Shown here: positions 3,620 through 29,114 of the stretch, piece after piece
How the letters are laid out: every line of letters begins with the position of its first letter
How positions within the stretch are numbered: the first letter of the stretch is position 1
Assembly: GCA_964485905.1 (NCBI GenBank)
Contig: CAZAJY010000001.1
Span: 1-59,097, forward strand
Reading direction: 5' to 3'
Origin: an uncultured Candidatus Saccharibacteria bacterium
GTDB lineage: Bacteria; Patescibacteriota; Minisyncoccia; Phycocordibacterales; GWA1-40-21
DNA length: 59,097 nt
Position numbers and translations under genes: made by a program
The notes under the pieces: model-generated
Database searches by the model: none
Seen by the model: only the letters and a program-made list of their open reading frames with translations
Told to the model about the DNA's origin: nothing

Positions 3620-4393
3620 TTATACCATAGTCAAAATTTCAGCACCATCTTTAGTGACGACAATAGTATGTTCAAAATGGGCGCTACGTTTACCATCAGC
3701 TGTCTTATAAGTCCAACCATCAGCATCTAATTTTATATGTTTTGATCCTTCATTCAACATCGGCTCCAGAGCCAGCACCATTCCAACCTTTAATCTCTCC
3801 CCCTTATCTTCTAAACAATAGTTGGGGACGTAGGGATCTTCATGAACTTTATAACCAACCCCATGTCCACATAATTCTTCTACAATTCCCAATCTTTTCG
3901 GCCGAACAAATCTTTCAATAGCATAACTAATATCCCGAATGTGTTTACCCTCTTTAATTGCTTTAATTCCGACCACTAAAGCCTGTTTTGTCGTTTCAAT
4001 TAAATTTTTTCCCACTTCATTTACTTCGCCCACCCCGACAGTAATAGCATGATCAGTAAAAAGTCCTCTATGTTCTAAGCCCATATCCAAAGAAACAATG
4101 TCACCATCTTTCAAAATCTTGGGTGATTCATTTGGTATGCCGTGAACAATTTCATCATTAATAGAAACACAAAGAGAGGCTGGATAGGGTCGCTTCATCC
4201 CTGCCGGTTTATAATTCAAAAAAGCGCTTTTATCTCCACCTTCCTCTACCAACTTTTGAGCTAAATCATTTAAATCAGAGGTAGAGATACCCGGCTTAAT
4301 GGCCTTAGCAATTTCACTCAAAATAAGGGCTAATCTCTTGCCCCCCTCCCTTAATATCTCTATTTCCTCTTTAGTCTTAATGGTTACGGACAT
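3620..4393 (-). CDS. map: methionine aminopeptidase type I
   Basis: 257 aa with the metal-ligand context DIVSLDMG, HGVGYKVHEDP, LEPM, FEHTIVVT. It sits after adk as in spc-alpha clusters. Confidence 0.9.
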   Translation of the reverse strand: MSVTIKTKEEIEILREGGKRLALILSEIAKAIKPGISTSDLNDLAQKLVEEGGDKSAFLNYKPAGMKRPYPASLCVSINDEIVHGIPNESPKILKDGDIVSLDMGLEHRGLFTDHAITVGVGEVNEVGKNLIETTKQALVVGIKAIKEGKHIRDISYAIERFVRPKRLGIVEELCGHGVGYKVHEDPYVPNYCLEDKGERLKVGMVLALEPMLNEGSKHIKLDADGWTYKTADGKRSAHFEHTIVVTKDGAEILTMV

Positions 4394-4554: not shown

Positions 4555-5151
4555 TTACCGATTTAGGCCTAATTTAGCAAGGAGCTCGCTCTGGACCTCC
4601 TCAATCGACTGCTCACCATTTATTTCAATCACATTGTAATAGGGATCACTTTTATAATAATCTACCACCGGTAAAACATCAGTTTCATACCAAGCTAAGC
4701 GACGATTAATTGACTCAACCGTATCATCTTTTCTAGCGCGACCAACTAATCTTTTTTCTGCCCAATCACGACTAACATTTACGCAAATAACGTTTGGTTT
4801 TTCAATTTCAAAAAACCTTAGAGTATCATTCAAAAGTTGTGCTTCTCTTAATTTTCTTGGAGCACCATCAAAAACTAAATTCTCTACTCCTGTAAAACTC
4901 TGTGTTAAACGATTCATCCACAATGAGACAATCACGGCCTCAGGGGCTAGGATTCCGTTTTCAATGGCAAATTTGGTCTTCTTTTGAGTAAAAGTATCGC
5001 CAGGAGCAAACTCTCTAAGCAAGGTTCCACTTTCAATATGAATTGTCTGTAGGTCTGGGTTCTGTTTAGCCAGCTCATCAATTAATAATTTGACCTGTGT
5101 CCCCTTACCACATCCACTCCGTCCAAGAAAAATAAAAGTTTTGTTTTTCAT
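4555..5151 (-). CDS. adk: adenylate kinase (short, no Zn lid)
   Basis: P-loop GRSGCGKGTQ, then DGAPRKLREAQ and RKDD motifs. I chose the internal ATG at 5151 (MKNKTFIFLG) because the longer ORF overlaps the rplE 3' end. Confidence 0.8.
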   Translation of the reverse strand: MKNKTFIFLGRSGCGKGTQVKLLIDELAKQNPDLQTIHIESGTLLREFAPGDTFTQKKTKFAIENGILAPEAVIVSLWMNRLTQSFTGVENLVFDGAPRKLREAQLLNDTLRFFEIEKPNVICVNVSRDWAEKRLVGRARKDDTVESINRRLAWYETDVLPVVDYYKSDPYYNVIEINGEQSIEEVQSELLAKLGLNR

Positions 5152-5209
5152 AATTTGCCCATTATAACATAAAAGAATCACCCAACAAGGTGATCTTTTT
5201 ATTTTTAAA

Positions 5210-22786: not shown

Positions 22787-23546
22787 ACTCTCCCCAATTT
22801 CTTATAATTTCTTGCTCATCCTCGGGAGAAATCGCCTTTTTATATTTAACATTCTTCACCCCCTTCACTCTTTGTTCGCATTCCGGCCAAGTGGCGTCAC
22901 GATAAATAATATTATTAATCAAACTTAAATAACAGTAGGCCTTAGCTTTGGAAGAAGTCTTTTTTACTTTCTTTTTATCTTCTTGCCCTAAATTTAAAAT
23001 ATCTAATTTATAACTCTCTATATTTCCTTTAAACAATTTAACTTTTTCTCCAGTCGCTAGATCCGAAGCAATTTCATCACAACGCTCATTCCCCACAATT
23101 CCGATATGACCGCCAACATATTCCCAATTAATTTTTCTTGACCGATCATTCTTATGATTTAGGCCTGCCAAATCTGCAAGTTTCTTCCACAAGTCCTGAT
23201 TTAAAACTTCTTCTGGTTTTTTATGAGGGTCATTTGAGGCCTTTTTCCAATTATTTTTCTGCCAACCATAAACCCATTTAGTAATTCCGTTTATTAAATA
23301 GCTAGAATCAGTATAAATTAAAATATCTCCTTTTTCCTTTTTTATTTTTTCTAAGGCTTTTATCGCGCCCATCAATTCCATCCGATTATTAGTTGTATGT
23401 TTCTCACTTCCGCCCAATTCTAGGATTTTTTCTCCGTCACCCTTCGATAGAACCTCAGGGTAAACAATCACCGCGCCATAACCCCCCGGCCCCGGATTCC
23501 CCTTCGACGCCCCATCTGTAAAAATTATTATTTTATTTTCTATCAT
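22773..23546 (-). CDS. rnhA: ribonuclease HI fused to a C-terminal hybrid-binding (Cauli_VI/HBD-like) domain
   Basis: RNase H core (IFTDGASKGNPGPGGYG, NNRMEL, YTDSSY, HIGIVGNERCDE). The C-terminus TWPECEQRVKGVKNVKYKKAISPEDE resembles the RNase H1 HBD motif TWxEC...V.G....(F/Y)KKF. Start taken at MIENKI. Confidence 0.8.
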   Translation of the reverse strand: MIENKIIIFTDGASKGNPGPGGYGAVIVYPEVLSKGDGEKILELGGSEKHTTNNRMELMGAIKALEKIKKEKGDILIYTDSSYLINGITKWVYGWQKNNWKKASNDPHKKPEEVLNQDLWKKLADLAGLNHKNDRSRKINWEYVGGHIGIVGNERCDEIASDLATGEKVKLFKGNIESYKLDILNLGQEDKKKVKKTSSKAKAYCYLSLINNIIYRDATWPECEQRVKGVKNVKYKKAISPEDEQEIIRNWGEYDQQ

Positions 23547-23567
23547 AAAAAAGATTATATCACAAAA

Positions 23568-23610
23568 CACAACCGCCCCTAACCCCTCCTTGACTAAGGA
23601 GGGGAAGAAA
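23568..23610. repeat. GC-rich palindromic intergenic element, copy C
   Basis: cacaaccgcccctaacccctccttgactaaggaggggaagaaa. It borders the low-coordinate edge of the DGR cassette. Confidence 0.7.
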
Positions 23611-23621
23611 CAAAATAAAAA

Positions 23622-23720
23622 ATGACCCCCCGATCCACCCCATTCGTTTGCACGAATGAAATGTATCGGAGGGTCAGAGGATCAAAGTTTCAAAGAATCA
23701 AGAGCAGAGATTCAGATAAA
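23622..23720 (-). repeat. 99-nt conserved 3' flank of VR1, including a terminator-like hairpin (23624-23675)
   Basis: Identical in 99 of 99 nt to 26337-26435. In the minus sense the hairpin is GACCCTCCGAT...CATTCG-tgcaaa-CGAATG...ATCGGGGGGTC followed by a T-rich run. Confidence 0.85.
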
Positions 23721-24341
23721 CTACAGTTGCGGAACGACGATCCGACGCCCGTACCCGGCACCCCAGACAAAGTCGTTGGACAAACGGCGCACGCGCACCT
23801 CGAGCCGGCCAACGTACCAGAACACATGGGCGACGAAAAACTCGTCGCCCTTCTTCAATAAGAAGAAGTTGGCACTACCATTCTGAATGAGCAGGTCAGG
23901 GCGATTCTCCACCACCCAGAGGACTTGCTCGTCAGTCAGGACCAACTTGTTCAGGTCCGCGCTGTAGGCGGTGAAGAAATCGTTGAATCTGCCGTTCTTG
24001 GCCAGTTCCAACGATTCCACCAGACAGGCGGGCTTAACTTTATCATTGGCTCCGATATTCCAGTTGCGGAAATCGGTGTCAAGGTAACCGGTGAAGAGGA
24101 TCTTCATCGAACTGATAGTCCTCTTGCCAGTCGTGGCCGGGATGGTGGCCAAAAGACCGAGGCGACGGAAGTAGCCGACAATCATCTTCGTGCGGTTTTT
24201 CACCGCTTCCACGAAGAGACTGATGGCCTCCACCGTATTTTGTATCACCCACTGACCATCCTCGGTCGTGAACGACGCAAAACCATCCTGATGCTCCACC
24301 AACCGTGCTGCTATTACCGGAATCTGTGGTTCAGTAGCCAT
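23721..24341 (-). CDS. DGR variable target protein 1 (small, no obvious signal peptide)
   Basis: The C-terminal 40 aa are encoded by VR1. It is a paralog of the 26436-27107 ORF. Start taken at MATEPQ (24341), preceded by GGAGAG; the ORF extends to 24401. Confidence 0.85.
   Translation of the reverse strand: MATEPQIPVIAARLVEHQDGFASFTTEDGQWVIQNTVEAISLFVEAVKNRTKMIVGYFRRLGLLATIPATTGKRTISSMKILFTGYLDTDFRNWNIGANDKVKPACLVESLELAKNGRFNDFFTAYSADLNKLVLTDEQVLWVVENRPDLLIQNGSANFFLLKKGDEFFVAHVFWYVGRLEVRVRRLSNDFVWGAGYGRRIVVPQL
23724..23842 (-). repeat. DGR variable repeat VR1
   Basis: 119 nt colinear with the TR. There are 16 differences, all where the TR sense strand has A (T on the plus strand), and 0 at the other 92 positions. 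Confidence 0.9.
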
Positions 24342-24399
24342 TTTGGCTCTCCTGTTTTTACAGATCTTCACCCACTGTCTCAAAACGTTATGTTTTGCC

Positions 24400-24439
24400 A
24401 CAGCTTTTAATATATTTTAATAAACACACTAAAAGCTGT
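24400..24439 (-). promoter_or_regulatory. conserved 5'-leader hairpin of target 1 (10-bp stem ACAGCTTTTA/TAAAAGCTGT, 20-nt AT loop)
   Basis: A homologous hairpin with a similar loop lies upstream of target 2 at 27204-27251. Confidence 0.55.
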
Positions 24440-24489
24440 AGCAAAACTTCTATTCCGCACTTATATCAAATATCTACTTTCTACCTCCT

Positions 24490-24518
24490 ATTATACACCT
24501 ACTGAACTTTTTTGTCAA
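24490..24518 (-). promoter_or_regulatory. consensus sigma70-type promoter for target 1 (TTGACA-17-TATAAT)
   Basis: The minus strand reads gcTTGACAaaaaagttcagtaggtgTATAATagg. Confidence 0.7.
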
Positions 24519-24568
24519 GCACAAAAAATGCACAAATTTTATTCTCAAATAAAGGCCTATTTATAAGA

Positions 24569-25564
24569 CTATTTTATAGTTTTCTGATTTAAGACTATAA
24601 TTTTAATTTTCTTTTGTAATTGCTTAGCGTTACCATGTTTTAATAAACCTAAATAGGAATTTACCACTTCTTTTTTCATATTAACCGCTAGATTTCTGAA
24701 CATCCTTCTCTTGGTGGCTGTTCTCAATACTCGATGATTAATAAAATGCACCCAACCTAAAAAATCCACGCCAGAAGCAAAAGTCTTAATGTATACTTTA
24801 TCGGGATGCAAATTTAATTTCAACTTTATCTGAAGAAAATTATCAACCAGTATTAGTAAGGATTCCAGATATTTCTTTTTATCACTTAATATCACGAAAT
24901 CATCAGCATATCTGACATAATATTTTACTTTAAGAATATGCTTCAGATATTGATCAAATTCATTTAAATAAATATTTACTAACAATTGTGAAGTTAAGTT
25001 ACCCAATGGTAATCCCTTCCCTTTTTGCGTACTATTAAAACTTTCCACCACTTTTTCTATCAGCCATAAAGTATCTGTATCTATATTGTGCCTTTTTATC
25101 ACTGTATATAAAATTTGATGATCAATAGAAGCAAAAAATTTCCGAATATCACACTTCAAGGCCCAGAGTGTTCGGCTGTGATTAAAAGAAGCTTTCCAAC
25201 CAAAATGTCTGAGACGATTCATGGCCCGATGTGTTCCTTTCATATTCCGACAAGAATAAGAATCCCCAATAAATCTGGTGTCAAAATACGAATATAAAAT
25301 CCTATAAATAGCACGGTGGAGTAGTCTGTCTCGAACTTTAGCTTTATGAATAATTCTCGGTTTAGGATCATTAATAGAAAATTGTTCATAATTTCCATGT
25401 TTATAAGTCTTATTTTTTAAATCTAAATAAAGATCATAAATATTTTTAGATAAAAAAATCAAAAAATTGCCGACGTCTTGCTTGTTTTTCTTATCACAAA
25501 TAAATTCCCGCCAGGCCAGGTGTAGATTTTCCAAAGATATGATATATTTATAATTATGATTCAT
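24569..25564 (-). CDS. DGR reverse transcriptase
   Basis: RT motifs including GLPLGNLTSQLLVNIYL (the DGR-typical xGNLTSQ) and YVRYADDF (YADD). No maturase, endonuclease or retron-like extras. Start taken at MNHNYKYIISLENL (25564); the ORF extends to 25615. Confidence 0.9.
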   Translation of the reverse strand: MNHNYKYIISLENLHLAWREFICDKKNKQDVGNFLIFLSKNIYDLYLDLKNKTYKHGNYEQFSINDPKPRIIHKAKVRDRLLHRAIYRILYSYFDTRFIGDSYSCRNMKGTHRAMNRLRHFGWKASFNHSRTLWALKCDIRKFFASIDHQILYTVIKRHNIDTDTLWLIEKVVESFNSTQKGKGLPLGNLTSQLLVNIYLNEFDQYLKHILKVKYYVRYADDFVILSDKKKYLESLLILVDNFLQIKLKLNLHPDKVYIKTFASGVDFLGWVHFINHRVLRTATKRRMFRNLAVNMKKEVVNSYLGLLKHGNAKQLQKKIKIIVLNQKTIK

Positions 25565-25957
25565 AAGCAAGATAAAGTTACATTTCAATATGAGACACCA
25601 AAAGTCCTTATCCAAGAAAAAGAACTATACCGCCTTTGGCTGACAATTCATAGGGATTTTCCAAAAGTGGAGAGATTAGGTATTGGCCAGAAAATAGAAC
25701 AATCCTTCTTGACTGTCTTAGAACTTACCTTCGCCTCGGTTTATTTAGTAGCTGAAAGTAAAATACTGATGTTAAATAAAACAATCGCTAAACTAGATAA
25801 TTTAAAATTTTTTATGCAACTAGCTTGGGAAAACCAACTGATACCAACAGAAAAATATTCAGAGATAGCTGGAAAACTTGAAGAAATCGGTCGTGGGCTT
25901 GGCGGTTGGAAAAAGGGTTTGCAAAAAAGTTTGGAACAAAAAACTCCCGCCAAATAG
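25556..25957 (+). CDS. avd: Avd-like accessory variability determinant (four-helix-bundle family)
   Basis: 133 aa. The helical pattern FPKVERLGIGQKIEQSFLTVLE...IAKLDNLKFFMQLAWENQLI...EEIGRGLGGW is typical of the 23S-IVS/Avd family. It lies next to the TR and RT but on the opposite strand. Confidence 0.75.
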   Translation: MIHKQDKVTFQYETPKVLIQEKELYRLWLTIHRDFPKVERLGIGQKIEQSFLTVLELTFASVYLVAESKILMLNKTIAKLDNLKFFMQLAWENQLIPTEKYSEIAGKLEEIGRGLGGWKKGLQKSLEQKTPAK

Positions 25958-25964
25958 ACGGGAG
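25938..25964 (-). terminator. terminator-like hairpin plus U6 immediately 3' of the TR (minus sense), overlapping the avd stop codon
   Basis: The minus strand reads CTCCCG-tctatttgg-CGGGAG followed by TTTTTT. Confidence 0.5.
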
Positions 25965-25972
25965 AAAATTTG

Positions 25973-26091
25973 CAGTTTCGGAACGACGATCCGATGCCCG
26001 TACCCGGCATCCCAGACATTGTCGTTGGACAAACGGTTCACGTTCACCTTGAGCCGGCCATCGTACCAGTTCACATTGGCGACGAAAATTT
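25973..26091 (-). repeat. DGR template repeat (TR)
   Basis: Noncoding copy of the VR with 27 adenines in the sense strand, several in AAC/AAT codons. Its conceptual translation is FVANVNWYDGRLKVNVNRLSNDNVWDAGYGHRIVVPKL. Confidence 0.9.
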
Positions 26092-26336
26092 GTGCTATCA
26101 ATCATCTAGCTCACCACCTGCCAAATCATGACAGATTGAATAGTATTTGAGACCTAAAAGTCTCTATAATTGATAGCACCAACTGTTAATATTTTTTGAA
26201 GGATATTTTTCTACACGCTTGCGTAAGGCGTACCCAACGCAATTCTGATATTAAATATCCTAAAATAATGACAGAAAAGCCTTGACCGTTCTGTAACACA
26301 TCATTCCAAAATTAGTATAGCAGATTTAAAATGAAA

Positions 26337-26435
26337 ATGACCCCCCGATCCACCCCATTCGTTTGCACGAATGAAATGTATCGGAGGGTCAGAGGATCAA
26401 AGTTTCAAAGAATCAAGAGCAGAGATTCAGATAAA
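26337..26435 (-). repeat. 99-nt conserved 3' flank of VR2, including a terminator-like hairpin
   Basis: Identical to 23622-23720. Confidence 0.85.
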
Positions 26436-27107
26436 CTACAGTTGCGGAACGACGAGCCGATGCCCGTACCCGGCATCCCAGACAGTGCCGTGGGACAAAC
26501 GGCGCACGTACACCAGGAGCCGGCCAGCGTACCAGTACACATCGGCGACGAAAAACTCGCCCTTACCTTGCAACTTCTCCTTGAACAGGAAGAAGGTGCC
26601 GTAGCCATCCGTTCGAAGCCACTTACTATGATCCTTCACGAAACGGATGATCTGGCTTTGCGTCAGGCACAAACTCTCCCGACTCCGGCCGAAGCCATCG
26701 TAGATCTGAGCAAAAGTCCCGTCCTTGACTAGCTCCAGAACCTCTACCCTCGTCTTCTTCGTCGGCTGACCCGGGATATTTATCCCGTAGTTCACGAAAT
26801 CACCGTCAATGTAGCCCGGGAAGATGTCCTTGGCTTCAGCAATCGTCGCCCGACCATTCGTCGCTCCGATGATCACCTTCTTGCCTTTGGACAACGATCG
26901 ACAGTAGCCCACTACCGGTTTCGGCTTGAGTACAAGCTCTCCTCGACCGAGAGTGAGCAAGGCCATATCGTTGGCCAACACTGGGTCACTCACGATCTTC
27001 GTGGCGTCAGAATCTGTTCCACCACTGTCCACAACCGCGTGAACATAGGCCTGCCCAATCTGAGCTAATGTCATTCCTTTTTCCGCCAACTCGCTTTTAC
27101 CACTCAT
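26436..27107 (-). CDS. DGR variable target protein 2 (paralog of target 1)
   Basis: 223 aa whose C-terminus is encoded by VR2. It shares VGY..., F.GY.D.DF.N and FFVA...WY.GRL motifs with target 1. A purine-rich RBS precedes the ATG. Confidence 0.85.
   Translation of the reverse strand: MSGKSELAEKGMTLAQIGQAYVHAVVDSGGTDSDATKIVSDPVLANDMALLTLGRGELVLKPKPVVGYCRSLSKGKKVIIGATNGRATIAEAKDIFPGYIDGDFVNYGINIPGQPTKKTRVEVLELVKDGTFAQIYDGFGRSRESLCLTQSQIIRFVKDHSKWLRTDGYGTFFLFKEKLQGKGEFFVADVYWYAGRLLVYVRRLSHGTVWDAGYGHRLVVPQL
26439..26557 (-). repeat. DGR variable repeat VR2
   Basis: 119 nt colinear with the TR. There are 15 differences, all at TR adenines, and 0 elsewhere. Confidence 0.9.
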
Positions 27108-27203
27108 CTCTTTCTTCTCCCTGTGGCCTGCCTAGTATAATACTTTGGCCTACCACCTTGCTTGTTGGCGATTATCGCCTTTTCGACTTCACCTATTTGG
27201 TTT

Positions 27204-27251
27204 AGTCACAGCTTTTAATAAATTAAATTAAACATACTAAAAGCTGTGACT
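27204..27251 (-). promoter_or_regulatory. conserved 5'-leader hairpin of target 2 (14-bp perfect stem, 20-nt AT loop)
   Basis: agtcacagctttta ... taaaagctgtgact. It is homologous to 24400-24439. Confidence 0.55.
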
Positions 27252-27288
27252 AATTCCGCATTTTTTAATGTCCTACTTTCTACCCCAT

Positions 27289-27317
27289 ATTATACACCCA
27301 AGCATTTTAAAAGTCAA
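27289..27317 (-). promoter_or_regulatory. near-consensus sigma70-type promoter for target 2 (TTGACT-17-TATAAT)
   Basis: The minus strand reads ccaTTGACTtttaaaatgcttgggtgTATAATatg. Confidence 0.7.
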
Positions 27318-27318
27318 T

Positions 27319-27362
27319 GGCAACCAATTTCCCCCTCGCCTTTTCTAAGGAGAGGGGTTGGG
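27319..27362. repeat. GC-rich palindromic element, copy D (overlaps the recJ 3' end)
   Basis: ttccccctcgccttttctaaggagaggggttgggggtgaggtcc. The recJ ORF reads through it (...DLTPNPSP*). Confidence 0.7.
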
Positions 27363-29114
27363 GGTGAGGTCCACTATCCTTAATCTCAACTCTTTTCGTC
27401 CCGCAAAAAAGGATAATTCAAGATTGGCCAATAAATTTATTTTATTCCCCTCTTTTAATTCCCCTTGATCTCGAAAGAAGCCAATCGCCTTAATGTTTAC
27501 ATTCTGAGAATTTTTAAAAGTTAGTTCTAAATGATTATTTTCTTTCCCAAACATTTTAATTTTTTCAATCATTACTTTTTCAAATAAAAATAATGGTTTA
27601 GGATTTCCTGTTCCAAAAGGAGCTAATTTTTCTATCAATTTATAGTTCGCCGATGTAACTTCGTCTAAAATTAATTTTAGATCTGACTCCACCAGACAAG
27701 GCGAGGCTTTTGGAGTACCAAAGGCCTCGCCTTGTCTTTCAACTTTTTCATAGGCCTGTTGTAATTTTTCCTCTAATAGATGGACTTTTTCTTCGATCAC
27801 CGAAAAGCCCCCGGACATTTGATGACCACCAAATTCTTGGAGAATTCCCGGTTCCACTTGTTGCATCAAATCTAAAACACTCATACAGCCATCTCCGCGA
27901 CAAGACCCCTTTAAAATATTTCCACCGTCTCGTCCCCACAAAAAAACTGGCCGATTATGATCATCCACCAGAGAATTAGCCACCAAACCCAGTAAAGATG
28001 GCTTCCAATCGGGGTTACCGATAACAATCACCTTCTTTTCCAAAGCCCCTTTGCACTGAGCTTTGTCGAGAGGGTTATCATCATAACGCTTCTTCATTAT
28101 CTTTCTAACTTCTTTAACTAAACTGGCGACAATTCCTTTTCTTTCATTATTAATTTTATCTAAATGTCGAGCATGGAGATCAGCTTCCACTTCGTCTTGA
28201 GCAATAAAAAGTTTAAAAGCGTCGTCAGGACTCCCCATTCTAGAAGCCGCATTAATTCTGGGCGAAATAGAAAAAACGATATCATCTTCCGTAATGTTTC
28301 TTTGATCTATTTTTAATAAAGAAAATAATTTCAATAGACCGACGCGAGGCGATTTCCGCAAAACTTTTAAACCGTAATAGGCCAGGGCGCGATTCTCGCC
28401 TACCAAAGGCACCATGTCCGACAAAGTCGCAATCCCCACCATATCTAAGAGCCACTTTTCCCAGCCTAAAGGAACAGAAATTTCCTCGGAGCGATTAGTC
28501 TGCGTTAAGCGTAGAGGATTTTTTTGTTCCTTTAGGCTGATTAGTATCGCCTGCACTAATTTATAGGCCACACCAGCGCCACATAAATCTTTAAAGGGAT
28601 ATTGTGAGTCCTCTCTTTTGGCATCAACTACCGCTACGGCTTCAGGTAAACCAGCCTGCGCAGGTAAATGATGATCGGTTATAATTAAATCAATTTTATG
28701 TTTTTTAATTTCCTCCGCTTCAACTAAATCAGTAATGCCACAGTCCACCGTAATAATTAATTTAACTTTATCTTTCTTAAATTGGTCAATGGCTTCATGA
28801 TTCAAACCAAAACCTTCATCATGGCGATGTGGAATATAATTAGTAAAATTCTCATGACCGATTTTCTGAAAAAAATCATACAAAATAACTCCGCCGGGAA
28901 TACCATCGGCATCATAATCACTAAAAATCACAACTCGTTCTTTTTTTTCTACGGCCTGTAGAATTCGCCCCACCGCCTTATCCATATCGGGCAAAAGAAA
29001 TGGGTCGTGCAAATCCTGCTCATAATCCGGATTCAAAAAATCCTCGGCTTCTTCGACGGTTTTAATACCTCTTTTCTCTAACAGGGTCTTCAAAAGCGGT
29101 GGGTATTTATCCAT
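27345..29114 (-). CDS. recJ: single-stranded-DNA-specific exonuclease RecJ
   Basis: DHH family motifs (IFSDYDADGI, TVDCG, ITDHH) and a DHHA1-like GGHQMSGG. Start taken at MDKYPP; the ORF extends to 29138. Confidence 0.88.
   Translation of the reverse strand: MDKYPPLLKTLLEKRGIKTVEEAEDFLNPDYEQDLHDPFLLPDMDKAVGRILQAVEKKERVVIFSDYDADGIPGGVILYDFFQKIGHENFTNYIPHRHDEGFGLNHEAIDQFKKDKVKLIITVDCGITDLVEAEEIKKHKIDLIITDHHLPAQAGLPEAVAVVDAKREDSQYPFKDLCGAGVAYKLVQAILISLKEQKNPLRLTQTNRSEEISVPLGWEKWLLDMVGIATLSDMVPLVGENRALAYYGLKVLRKSPRVGLLKLFSLLKIDQRNITEDDIVFSISPRINAASRMGSPDDAFKLFIAQDEVEADLHARHLDKINNERKGIVASLVKEVRKIMKKRYDDNPLDKAQCKGALEKKVIVIGNPDWKPSLLGLVANSLVDDHNRPVFLWGRDGGNILKGSCRGDGCMSVLDLMQQVEPGILQEFGGHQMSGGFSVIEEKVHLLEEKLQQAYEKVERQGEAFGTPKASPCLVESDLKLILDEVTSANYKLIEKLAPFGTGNPKPLFLFEKVMIEKIKMFGKENNHLELTFKNSQNVNIKAIGFFRDQGELKEGNKINLLANLELSFFAGRKELRLRIVDLTPNPSP

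Follow-up and report, generated by a model that had tools for sequence, protein, structure and literature searches.

Gene order and template RNA of a candidate phyla radiation diversity-generating retroelement with an inverted avd

Introduction

How does a diversity-generating retroelement (DGR) make its template RNA when the accessory gene avd (accessory variability determinant) lies in reverse orientation between the template repeat (TR) and the reverse transcriptase (RT) gene? The question is raised by a locus in a 59,097-nucleotide stretch of DNA from an uncultured Candidatus Saccharibacteria bacterium (contig CAZAJY010000001.1; the whole stretch is referred to here as the window). In the Bordetella phage, cDNA synthesis needs 140 nucleotides (nt) of structured RNA (Sp) 3′ of the TR (Handa et al. 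2018; 2024 preprint), and within the Bordetella DGR RNA a segment upstream of the TR pairs with one downstream of it (Handa et al. 2024 preprint). In the window, the corresponding RNA would be antisense to avd. We find that this gene order is the norm for DGRs of CPR (candidate phyla radiation) bacteria, and that the TR of these elements is preceded by a conserved, covarying RNA leader and followed by a conserved stem-loop and U-tract. The puzzle of the missing 3′ spacer is probably resolved by RNA 5′ of the TR.

CPR DGRs are among the most abundant in nature, while mechanistic knowledge of DGRs comes entirely from one phage element with another gene order.

Gene order and identity of the cassette

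The core of the cassette consists of the following features, with variable repeats (VRs) at the ends of two target genes.

24569-25564, minus strand: DGR RT (RVT_1, 1e-23)
25556-25957, plus strand: avd, encoding a four-helix bundle; it runs towards the TR RNA (convergent) and away from RT (divergent)
25963/25971-26088, minus strand: TR, placed by alignment to the two VRs
26429-26554, minus strand: VR1, which matches the TR over 126 nt with 86.5% identity, at the 3′ end of target gene 1
23714-23839, minus strand: VR2, placed by alignment to the TR, at the 3′ end of target gene 2
26436-27107, minus strand: target gene 1, from the list of open reading frames (ORFs), with VR1 at its 3′ end
23721-24401, minus strand: target gene 2, from the ORF list, with VR2 at its 3′ end; downstream of RT

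The locus displays the defining properties of a DGR, namely TR/VR differences almost confined to TR adenines, a DGR-type RT beside the TR, and a VR at the 3′ end of the target. Read in the minus sense, 13 of the 14 scored mismatches between VR1 and the TR fall at TR adenines, as do 14 of 15 for VR2 (27/29 for both VRs together). This pattern fixes the TR RNA as minus-sense, co-directional with RT and both target ORFs, as the earlier note on this DNA had proposed. Both VRs end at the stop codons of their target ORFs. The A-to-N differences in the TR reach an A at ~25981, and VR homology fades past AACTG. A check for the initiation of mutagenic homing sites (IMH and IMH*) revealed a GC-rich invariant stretch, GGGTACGGGCATCGG..TCGTCGTTCCG, before the end of homology, with TR and VR diverging after AACTG; the comparison gives no functional definition of either site.

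The plus-strand ORF between the TR and RT, previously described as Avd-like, was checked by hidden Markov model and by structure, and both identify it as Avd. It scores 47.9 bits against the Pfam family PF22296 (bAvd-like; gathering cut-off 40, E 2.1e-12), which is present in 116/116 Avd homologues. A sequence search of the PDB with Avd returned no match at E <= 1, and a fold comparison was therefore needed. The AlphaFold monomer model, computed from 44 homologues, has a pLDDT of 88.2 and contains four helices (residues 16-32, 37-61, 66-92, and 98-129) behind a disordered segment at residues 1-11. Foldseek superimposes this model on Bordetella Avd (4dwl; TM 0.73/0.87, rmsd 1.5 Å) and also matches it to Avd chains B-E of the DGR ribonucleoprotein 8ub7.

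To place the cassette among its relatives, we scanned one genome per species with the RT protein. This yielded 579 relatives in genome contigs. We compared the best 80 (57-67% identity), all of which come from metagenome-assembled genomes of the CPR/Patescibacteria type. In 71/71 relatives with enough upstream DNA, the gene next upstream of RT is an avd homologue on the opposite strand. A TR with RT-sense adenine bias abuts the 3′ end of avd in 66 loci, and in nearly all of these a VR follows 230-420 nt further upstream. Wu et al. 2018 (NAR 46:11, PMC5758913) catalogued the same arrangement as architecture B3, TR-(avd)-RT with avd reversed, and report it for 90% of CPR DGRs. The window conforms to it, with the TR at 25963-26088 (minus), avd at 25556-25957 (plus), RT at 24569-25564 (minus), and no other accessory gene. 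It shares with the published B3 elements the core order, the reversed avd, and, upstream of the TR, a target bearing a 3′ VR, and the gene order differs from theirs only by the addition of a second target downstream of RT. The cassette is thus an ordinary member of a CPR-restricted DGR lineage, with architecture B3, VR-TR-(avd)-RT, plus this second target. DGR clade 2 is restricted to Patescibacteria (Roux et al. 2021), and the element in the window probably belongs to it, a placement based on host range.

These results bear on two parts of the earlier description. That avd sits antisense between the TR and RT is borne out by the positions and strands given above. That this wiring is unusual is not: the judgment arose from comparison with the Bordetella phage paradigm, and within this lineage the layout is the rule. 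One respect in which the window does depart from its relatives is that most of them carry a simple-sequence repeat in the 5′ end of avd, which the window lacks.

A structured leader 5′ of the template repeat

Upstream of the TR, the minus strand carries a structured element with three parts that matter here.

26084-26327, minus strand: structured TR-RNA leader, ~230-240 nt (covariance model R1, 176.6 bits, E 3e-42)
26319-26314, minus strand: predicted -10 box TATACT of the TR RNA, at the leader 5′ edge; predicted start ~26307
26192-26197, minus strand: leader A-run, predicted to pair at long range with the linker that lies 3′ of the TR (AAAAU:AUUUU)

Model R1 matches the window once and each of 72 loci exactly once, always in RT sense and always ending at the TR; ~40 of the 72 leader-bearing loci lie outside the R1 seed. 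From an alignment of 32 leader sequences, RNAalifold derives six helices with 40 predicted pairs, and compensatory changes occur at 34 of these pairs. The cells of the alignment are paired in 95.8% of cases, compared with 42-47% when partners are slid, and the covariation score is 0.891 against <=0.20 in the slid controls; 0/500 shuffles reach the observed values. The conserved parts comprise two hairpins with GGYYAMGGYUU loops, the A-run, an invariant A[CG]UUGGUG, and a 12-bp long-range helix that closes a multi-helix domain. The leader ends with ACAA at the TR.

A TAnnnT box marks the leader 5′ edge in 69/69 loci, most often as TATACT (18), TAAAAT (14), or TATAAT (14), and is TGn-extended in 27. 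In the window, this predicted -10 box comes just after the stable hairpin and U-rich tail that follow VR1, an order that suggests that the target transcript ends before the promoter of the TR RNA.

The A-rich segment of the leader is complementary to the linker between the TR and the downstream stem-loop (consensus AAAAAAUGAAGA versus UCUUCAUUU). Across 48 loci, the duplex of a leader with its own (cognate) linker is more stable than that with a non-cognate linker (-7.64 versus -6.42 kcal/mol; permutation p = 2e-4), pointing to a long-range duplex that flanks the TR.

The stem-loop 3′ of the template repeat

Directly 3′ of the TR lies a second conserved structure.

25964-25938, minus strand: stem-loop CTCCCGTC-tattt-GGCGGGAG followed by TTTTTTG; 8 bp (6 G-C), loop of 5, U6

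This is the hairpin and U6 that the earlier note had placed immediately 3′ of the TR; the stop codon of avd (25955-25957) does fall inside it. The structure satisfies the sequence definition of an intrinsic (Rho-independent) terminator and is the only terminator-like site found by a consensus scan of 24400-26500 (2.1 kb). Its energy is -13.9 kcal/mol, close to the family median of -13.2. Requiring at least 6 pairs, at least 3 G-C pairs, and a T-rich tail within 70 nt of the TR end, we find a stem-loop with a T-rich tail in 56/67 loci, whereas shuffled sequences give 3.5 +/- 1.9 (maximum 10), a ~16-fold enrichment. Family stems measure 7-12 bp, with a mode of 8-9, and begin at, or a few nt from, the end of TR/VR homology. 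The outer stem pairs are conserved as CUCYC...GRGAG, followed by UUUUGUUU, while the inner pairs change in compensation; 6/7 consensus pairs show compensatory changes.

In the Bordetella phage, a stem-loop directly 3′ of the TR (Sp3-33) is held by each of the five Avd protomers (Handa et al. 2024 preprint), and similar stem-loops, “most commonly 9 bp”, occur just downstream of the TR in 207/278 Avd-containing DGRs, CPR included (Handa et al. 2024). Judged by its sequence and position, the stem-loop in the window is likely to be both a terminator and the counterpart of this Avd-binding element.

The U-tract and the 3′ arm of the stem-loop also encode, on the plus strand, the last codons of avd (EQKTPAK*; 25938-25957). 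Among the relatives, the interior of the stem, and hence the sequence of the Avd tail, varies while pairing is kept. From the sequence alignments, the constrained feature at the 3′ end of avd seems to be the RNA/DNA structure rather than the protein tail.

Overlapping starts of avd and RT

At the other end of avd, two features lie within or across the RT coding sequence.

25556-25564, both strands: avd/RT start overlap, 9 nt ATGATTCAT shared by both ATGs; divergent
25540-25548, plus strand: predicted extended -10 TG-A-TATATT for avd, in RT codons 6-9, 7 nt before the avd ATG

The best PDB match of the RT is the Bordetella DGR RT (bRT; 8ub7_A, 1.4e-35, residues 8-296 versus 12-288), which ranks ahead of retron and group II intron RTs among the solved relatives. 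Since this alignment begins at residue 8 versus 12, it supports the ATG at 25564 as the RT start. The divergent overlap of the start codons noted earlier thus stands, with the avd ATG at 25556 and the RT ATG at 25564 sharing ATGATTCAT.

The avd ATG is the complement of the CAT codon for RT His3, a conserved histidine near the RT N-terminus. This histidine is encoded by CAT in 57 of 60 His codons compared, and we placed the start codons of the relatives by anchoring on it. An ATG opposite this histidine, open towards avd, is present in 52/72 loci, with overlaps of 9-24 nt. Because the RT of the relatives usually starts 4-7 codons before the histidine, most overlaps measure 15-24 nt; in the window, where the histidine is codon 3, the overlap is 9 nt. 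The exact 9-nt form is common to Avd homologues that start M-x-H (P0002-4, P0014, P0022, P0024, and others).

On the avd strand, TGnTAnnnT occurs 7 nt before the avd ATG in 55/68 loci. The codon that supplies the TG, RT Ile8, is ATC in 61/73 cases (84%), compared with 28% ATC among all Ile codons of the same RT genes. This synonymous bias argues that the extended -10 is not solely a by-product of RT protein conservation. We infer from these sequence patterns that avd is expressed as a leaderless mRNA started from an extended -10 promoter within RT codons.

The proposal that each gene’s promoter lies inside the other gene is thus supported for avd by the Ile8 bias and the conserved TGnTAnnnT, and is unconvincing for RT in the window, where the promoter is weak by consensus scan. 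Among the relatives, 17 have a -10 box 5-7 nt before the RT start.

Origin of the template RNA

We propose that the TR is transcribed apart from avd and RT, as a noncoding RNA of ~365-370 nt that would run on the minus strand from ~26307 to ~25940 and start from its own -10 box. Such an RNA would comprise the conserved structured leader, the TR, a linker whose pairing with the leader has statistical support, and the conserved stem-loop and U-tract. The last of these would end the transcript before it could run antisense into avd, and the stem-loop would probably also act as the counterpart of the Avd-binding stem-loop of Bordetella. The surfaces for RT-Avd docking and primer positioning, which in Bordetella lie 3′ of the TR in Sp, would here come mostly from the 5′ leader; with docking supplied in this way, the DGR RNA would be rearranged rather than truncated. 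The avd gene would be transcribed convergently as a leaderless mRNA from the extended -10 in RT codons 6-9, and RT divergently, with its first 9 nt overlapping those of avd. Because the starts overlap, the avd and RT initiation complexes would have to compete for the same DNA. By the established DGR mechanism, RT-Avd would act in trans on the TR RNA, giving adenine-mutagenised cDNA that replaces the VRs of both targets; the adenine bias is evident in both VRs.

We hold this account as a whole, an autonomous TR RNA with its own promoter, a 5′ recognition domain, and a 3′ stem-loop, used in trans, to be probable, with a sizeable share of doubt. The earlier suggestion of a short autonomous TR RNA is supported in its autonomy, by the -10 box in every locus compared, the covarying leader, and the widespread stem-loop with its U-tract, but not in its shortness, since the leader alone adds ~230 nt.

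Several points weigh against the proposal. Conservation, covariation, positions, and strand are observed, while the promoter, termination, protein-binding roles, and leaderless starts are read from sequence. The leader-linker duplex of the window amounts to only ~5 A-U pairs. The RT promoter of the window is weak by consensus, so that transcription of the TR RNA could also read through into RT. A Lys/Gln-rich C-terminal tail of Avd is encoded by the U-tract together with the hairpin’s 3′ arm, and the conservation of both could be partly protein-driven; the CUCYC/GRGAG base of the stem exceeds what a terminator needs and fits a protein-binding role without termination. A candidate primer duplex between leader A[CG]UUGG and AA[GC]U at the TR 3′ end was rejected, as its variable bases are unassociated (Fisher p = 1.0), and the priming site was not located.

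The main rival is a single transcript of the Bordetella type, in which the hairpin only binds Avd, transcription reads through from the TR across antisense avd into RT, and the antisense-avd RNA serves as the spacer with the primer and RT-binding elements. In the Bordetella phage, TR and brt are contiguous, the 3′ stem-loop binds Avd, and the 140-nt Sp, bearing the primer, the thumb ring, and the RT-binding stem, is required; the stem-loops reported by Handa et al. 3′ of the TR (207/278 Avd-type DGRs) include CPR elements. The conserved stem base suggests sequence-specific recognition, the RT of the window has no good consensus promoter, and the U-tract doubles as Avd coding sequence. Against this rival, when 27 loci are aligned, the 150 nt past the stem-loop, antisense to avd, yield 0 RNAalifold pairs and only codon-like conservation, in contrast to the strongly covarying leader 5′ of the TR, and we therefore rejected antisense avd as a structured spacer of the ~140-nt Bordetella type. 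The terminator pattern recurs in 56/67 loci, 17 relatives have a -10 box before RT, and a long antisense transcript would clash with avd expression. We regard the single transcript as unlikely, at roughly one chance in a handful.

Less probable still is that antisense regulation is the purpose of the arrangement. Avd levels would then be tuned, by transcriptional interference or by pairing between RNAs, through TR-RNA read-through over avd and through the 9 nt by which the avd and RT mRNAs are complementary at their 5′ ends. Throughout the family, the TR and avd stay convergent, and avd and RT divergent with overlapping starts, and with such a geometry interference is physically unavoidable if the terminator leaks. 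Against this, a terminator conserved at exactly the TR/avd junction implies that read-through is prevented rather than exploited, and a 5′ overlap of 9-24 nt is short for stable RNA-RNA control. The earlier idea of an antisense interplay between the TR transcript and avd mRNA likewise gains no support from the 150 nt 3′ of the hairpin, where conserved antisense structure is absent.

Finally, one might take the plus-strand ORF, the start overlap, and the hairpin for chance products of AT-rich DNA with no function in the cassette; many spurious ORFs do arise in such DNA, and several overlap the TR and VRs. This reading can be dismissed for practical purposes, refuted by the Avd family score, the four-helix model, and the 116 homologues, and contradicted by the position and strand of avd in 71/71 relatives and the ~16-fold excess of the hairpin over shuffles.

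Simple repeats in the avd of relatives

Between the avd body and the RT start, 66/72 loci with an Avd match (the window counted) carry a simple repeat, either G7-G11 on the RT strand, read in Avd as a C-run encoding “PP/PPP/PPPP”, or (GA)n of up to 43 nt.

Examples in relatives: L001 3943-3951; L010 3963-3972; L009 3956-3966; L053 ~3972-3994; L081 1477-1486

The window has no simple repeat in 25556-25620 and hence lacks the sequence hallmark of a simple-sequence-repeat (SSR) contingency locus; a few close relatives (P0002, P0003, and P0022) are likewise without one. With the start taken as the ATG opposite the RT histidine, the avd of poly-C loci, as assembled, is in frame 0, +1, or +2 in 9, 19, and 8 cases, and C10 loci are mostly in frame +1. 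Avd gene calls in the protein database are split in a corresponding way between full-length “M..PPPREAPKVLLKEKE” and truncated “MLLKEKE” forms. In 17 loci, the G-run is followed directly by TAnnnT, 5-7 nt, and the RT start, an arrangement in which the repeat would also lie in the spacer of the RT promoter.

Length switching within a population was looked for among contigs that encode the identical Avd P0040 but did not emerge: five assemblies are identical (C10, out of frame), and one is C11, owing to a base difference at the edge of the tract; they share a single field site. On the sequence evidence, the repeat may act as a contingency (phase) switch for Avd; alternatively, programmed +1 shifting or slippage during transcription may take place there.

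Several contigs end in this region. Three of them (L045 1-48, L064 1-49, and L067 1-52) start with at least 48 nt of poly-C where relatives have the G-run, and three others (L004, L016, and L047) begin no more than 22 nt from the RT start. The repeat is a place where assemblies tend to break, through sequencing artefact and/or length heterogeneity.

Other features of the locus

The ~100 nt 3′ of VR1 and of VR2 are near-identical, forming duplicated modules (26331-26435 and 23622-23720) that each contain a very stable interrupted hairpin. Between RT and target gene 2 lies a candidate promoter.

26338-26391, minus strand: post-VR1 hairpin, ~45 nt 3′ of VR1; -38.6 kcal/mol, z -7.1; U-rich tail
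23623-23676, minus strand: post-VR2 hairpin, the second copy of the module; -38.4 kcal/mol, z -7.2; U-rich tail
24490-24518, minus strand: sigma-70 promoter TTGACA-17-TATAAT, 12/12 consensus, between the RT stop and target gene 2

The post-VR hairpins are probably terminators of the target genes and/or the target-side hairpin known from other DGRs. The perfect sigma-70 consensus upstream of target gene 2 indicates that this gene has a strong promoter of its own. Duplication of the module also yields spurious plus-strand ORFs that share their N-termini (23622-23861 and 26331-26732). In one relative (L015), a LOOT RNA (RF03000, 81 bits, well above gathering) is found at 5063-5180 on the plus strand, ~100 nt 3′ of RT; it has no equivalent at 23000-27500 of the window.

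Significance

With the inverted avd a catalogued norm for CPR DGRs, the finding as first stated is ordinary. Interest beyond the catalogued wiring lies in the organisation of the RNA and the repeat in the relatives. Our literature searches brought up no account of the leader, of a terminator role for the stem-loop, or of the repeat, and nothing linking DGRs to simple repeats or phase variation; Paul et al. 2017 and the RT-9 supplement lie outside the literature covered.

A broader proposal can be put forward tentatively, as one we rate somewhat short of an even chance. The RNA of CPR B3 DGRs would be a self-contained noncoding RNA with its docking structure mostly 5′ of the TR; avd and RT would be leaderless, transcribed from mutually exclusive, overlapping promoters in each other’s first codons; and, in most relatives, a hypermutable poly-G/C or (GA)n tract in this overlap would control whether Avd, and perhaps also RT, is made, rendering hypermutation phase-variable, with the window as a repeat-less, “locked” variant. 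If an autonomous template RNA of ~370 nt with a 5′ recognition domain does exist, it would offer a defined, compact RNA to reconstitute and a test of which elements of the Bordetella RNA are universal. It might also provide a smaller programmable template for DGR-based mutagenesis tools. Should the avd repeat of the relatives switch, it would be the first on/off control described for a DGR.

Comparison with known systems

SSR switches are found in overlapping divergent promoters and 5′ coding regions, as with the (TA)n of Haemophilus hifA/hifB and the poly-G/C tracts of Neisseria. The relatives resemble these switches in carrying G7-11/C7-11 or (GA)n in the 5′ coding region of avd, with mixed reading frames, whereas the window carries no repeat.

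In retrons, the structured part of the msr-msd RNA that lies 5′ of the template supplies the primer. The proposed TR RNA would be analogous, as an autonomous structured noncoding RNA encoded beside an RT and bearing both a template and RT-recruiting structures. It differs in having no sequence or structural homology to msr-msd, in belonging with another RT clade, and in giving homing cDNA rather than msDNA. By this analogy, we hypothesise that priming might occur from the leader, as in retrons.

Structured RNAs near RT genes have also been described as the motifs RT-1 to RT-19, of which RT-10 is the BPP-1 TR-brt spacer and others were guessed to serve DGRs (Weinberg et al. 2017). No Rfam family matches the leader at threshold. 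The nearest candidate, RT-9 (RF03080), was rejected: the window reaches 27.4 bits where the gathering score is 46.1, in a match centred on the first leader hairpin, and among 23 related loci RT-9 has no match at the gathering score in 16 and none at E <= 1 in 7. Both are structured RNAs beside RT genes, and the consensus hairpin loop of RT-9, GGUUACGGCU, is the same as in two leader hairpins, while the leader is ~2.5 times longer than the RT-9 model.

A further comparison is with the Bordetella BPP-1 DGR (mtd-avd-TR-brt). The two elements share an RT that is closest to bRT, the Avd fold, and adenine-specific mutagenesis, as well as a stem-loop of ~8-9 bp directly 3′ of the TR and an upstream:downstream duplex flanking the TR, which is weak in the window. 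They differ in that avd is inverted here and lies between the TR and RT. The B3 family is without conserved structure 3′ of the stem-loop and has instead a ~230-nt structured domain 5′ of the TR; its stem-loop is followed by a U-tract, and its TR RNA appears to have a promoter of its own.

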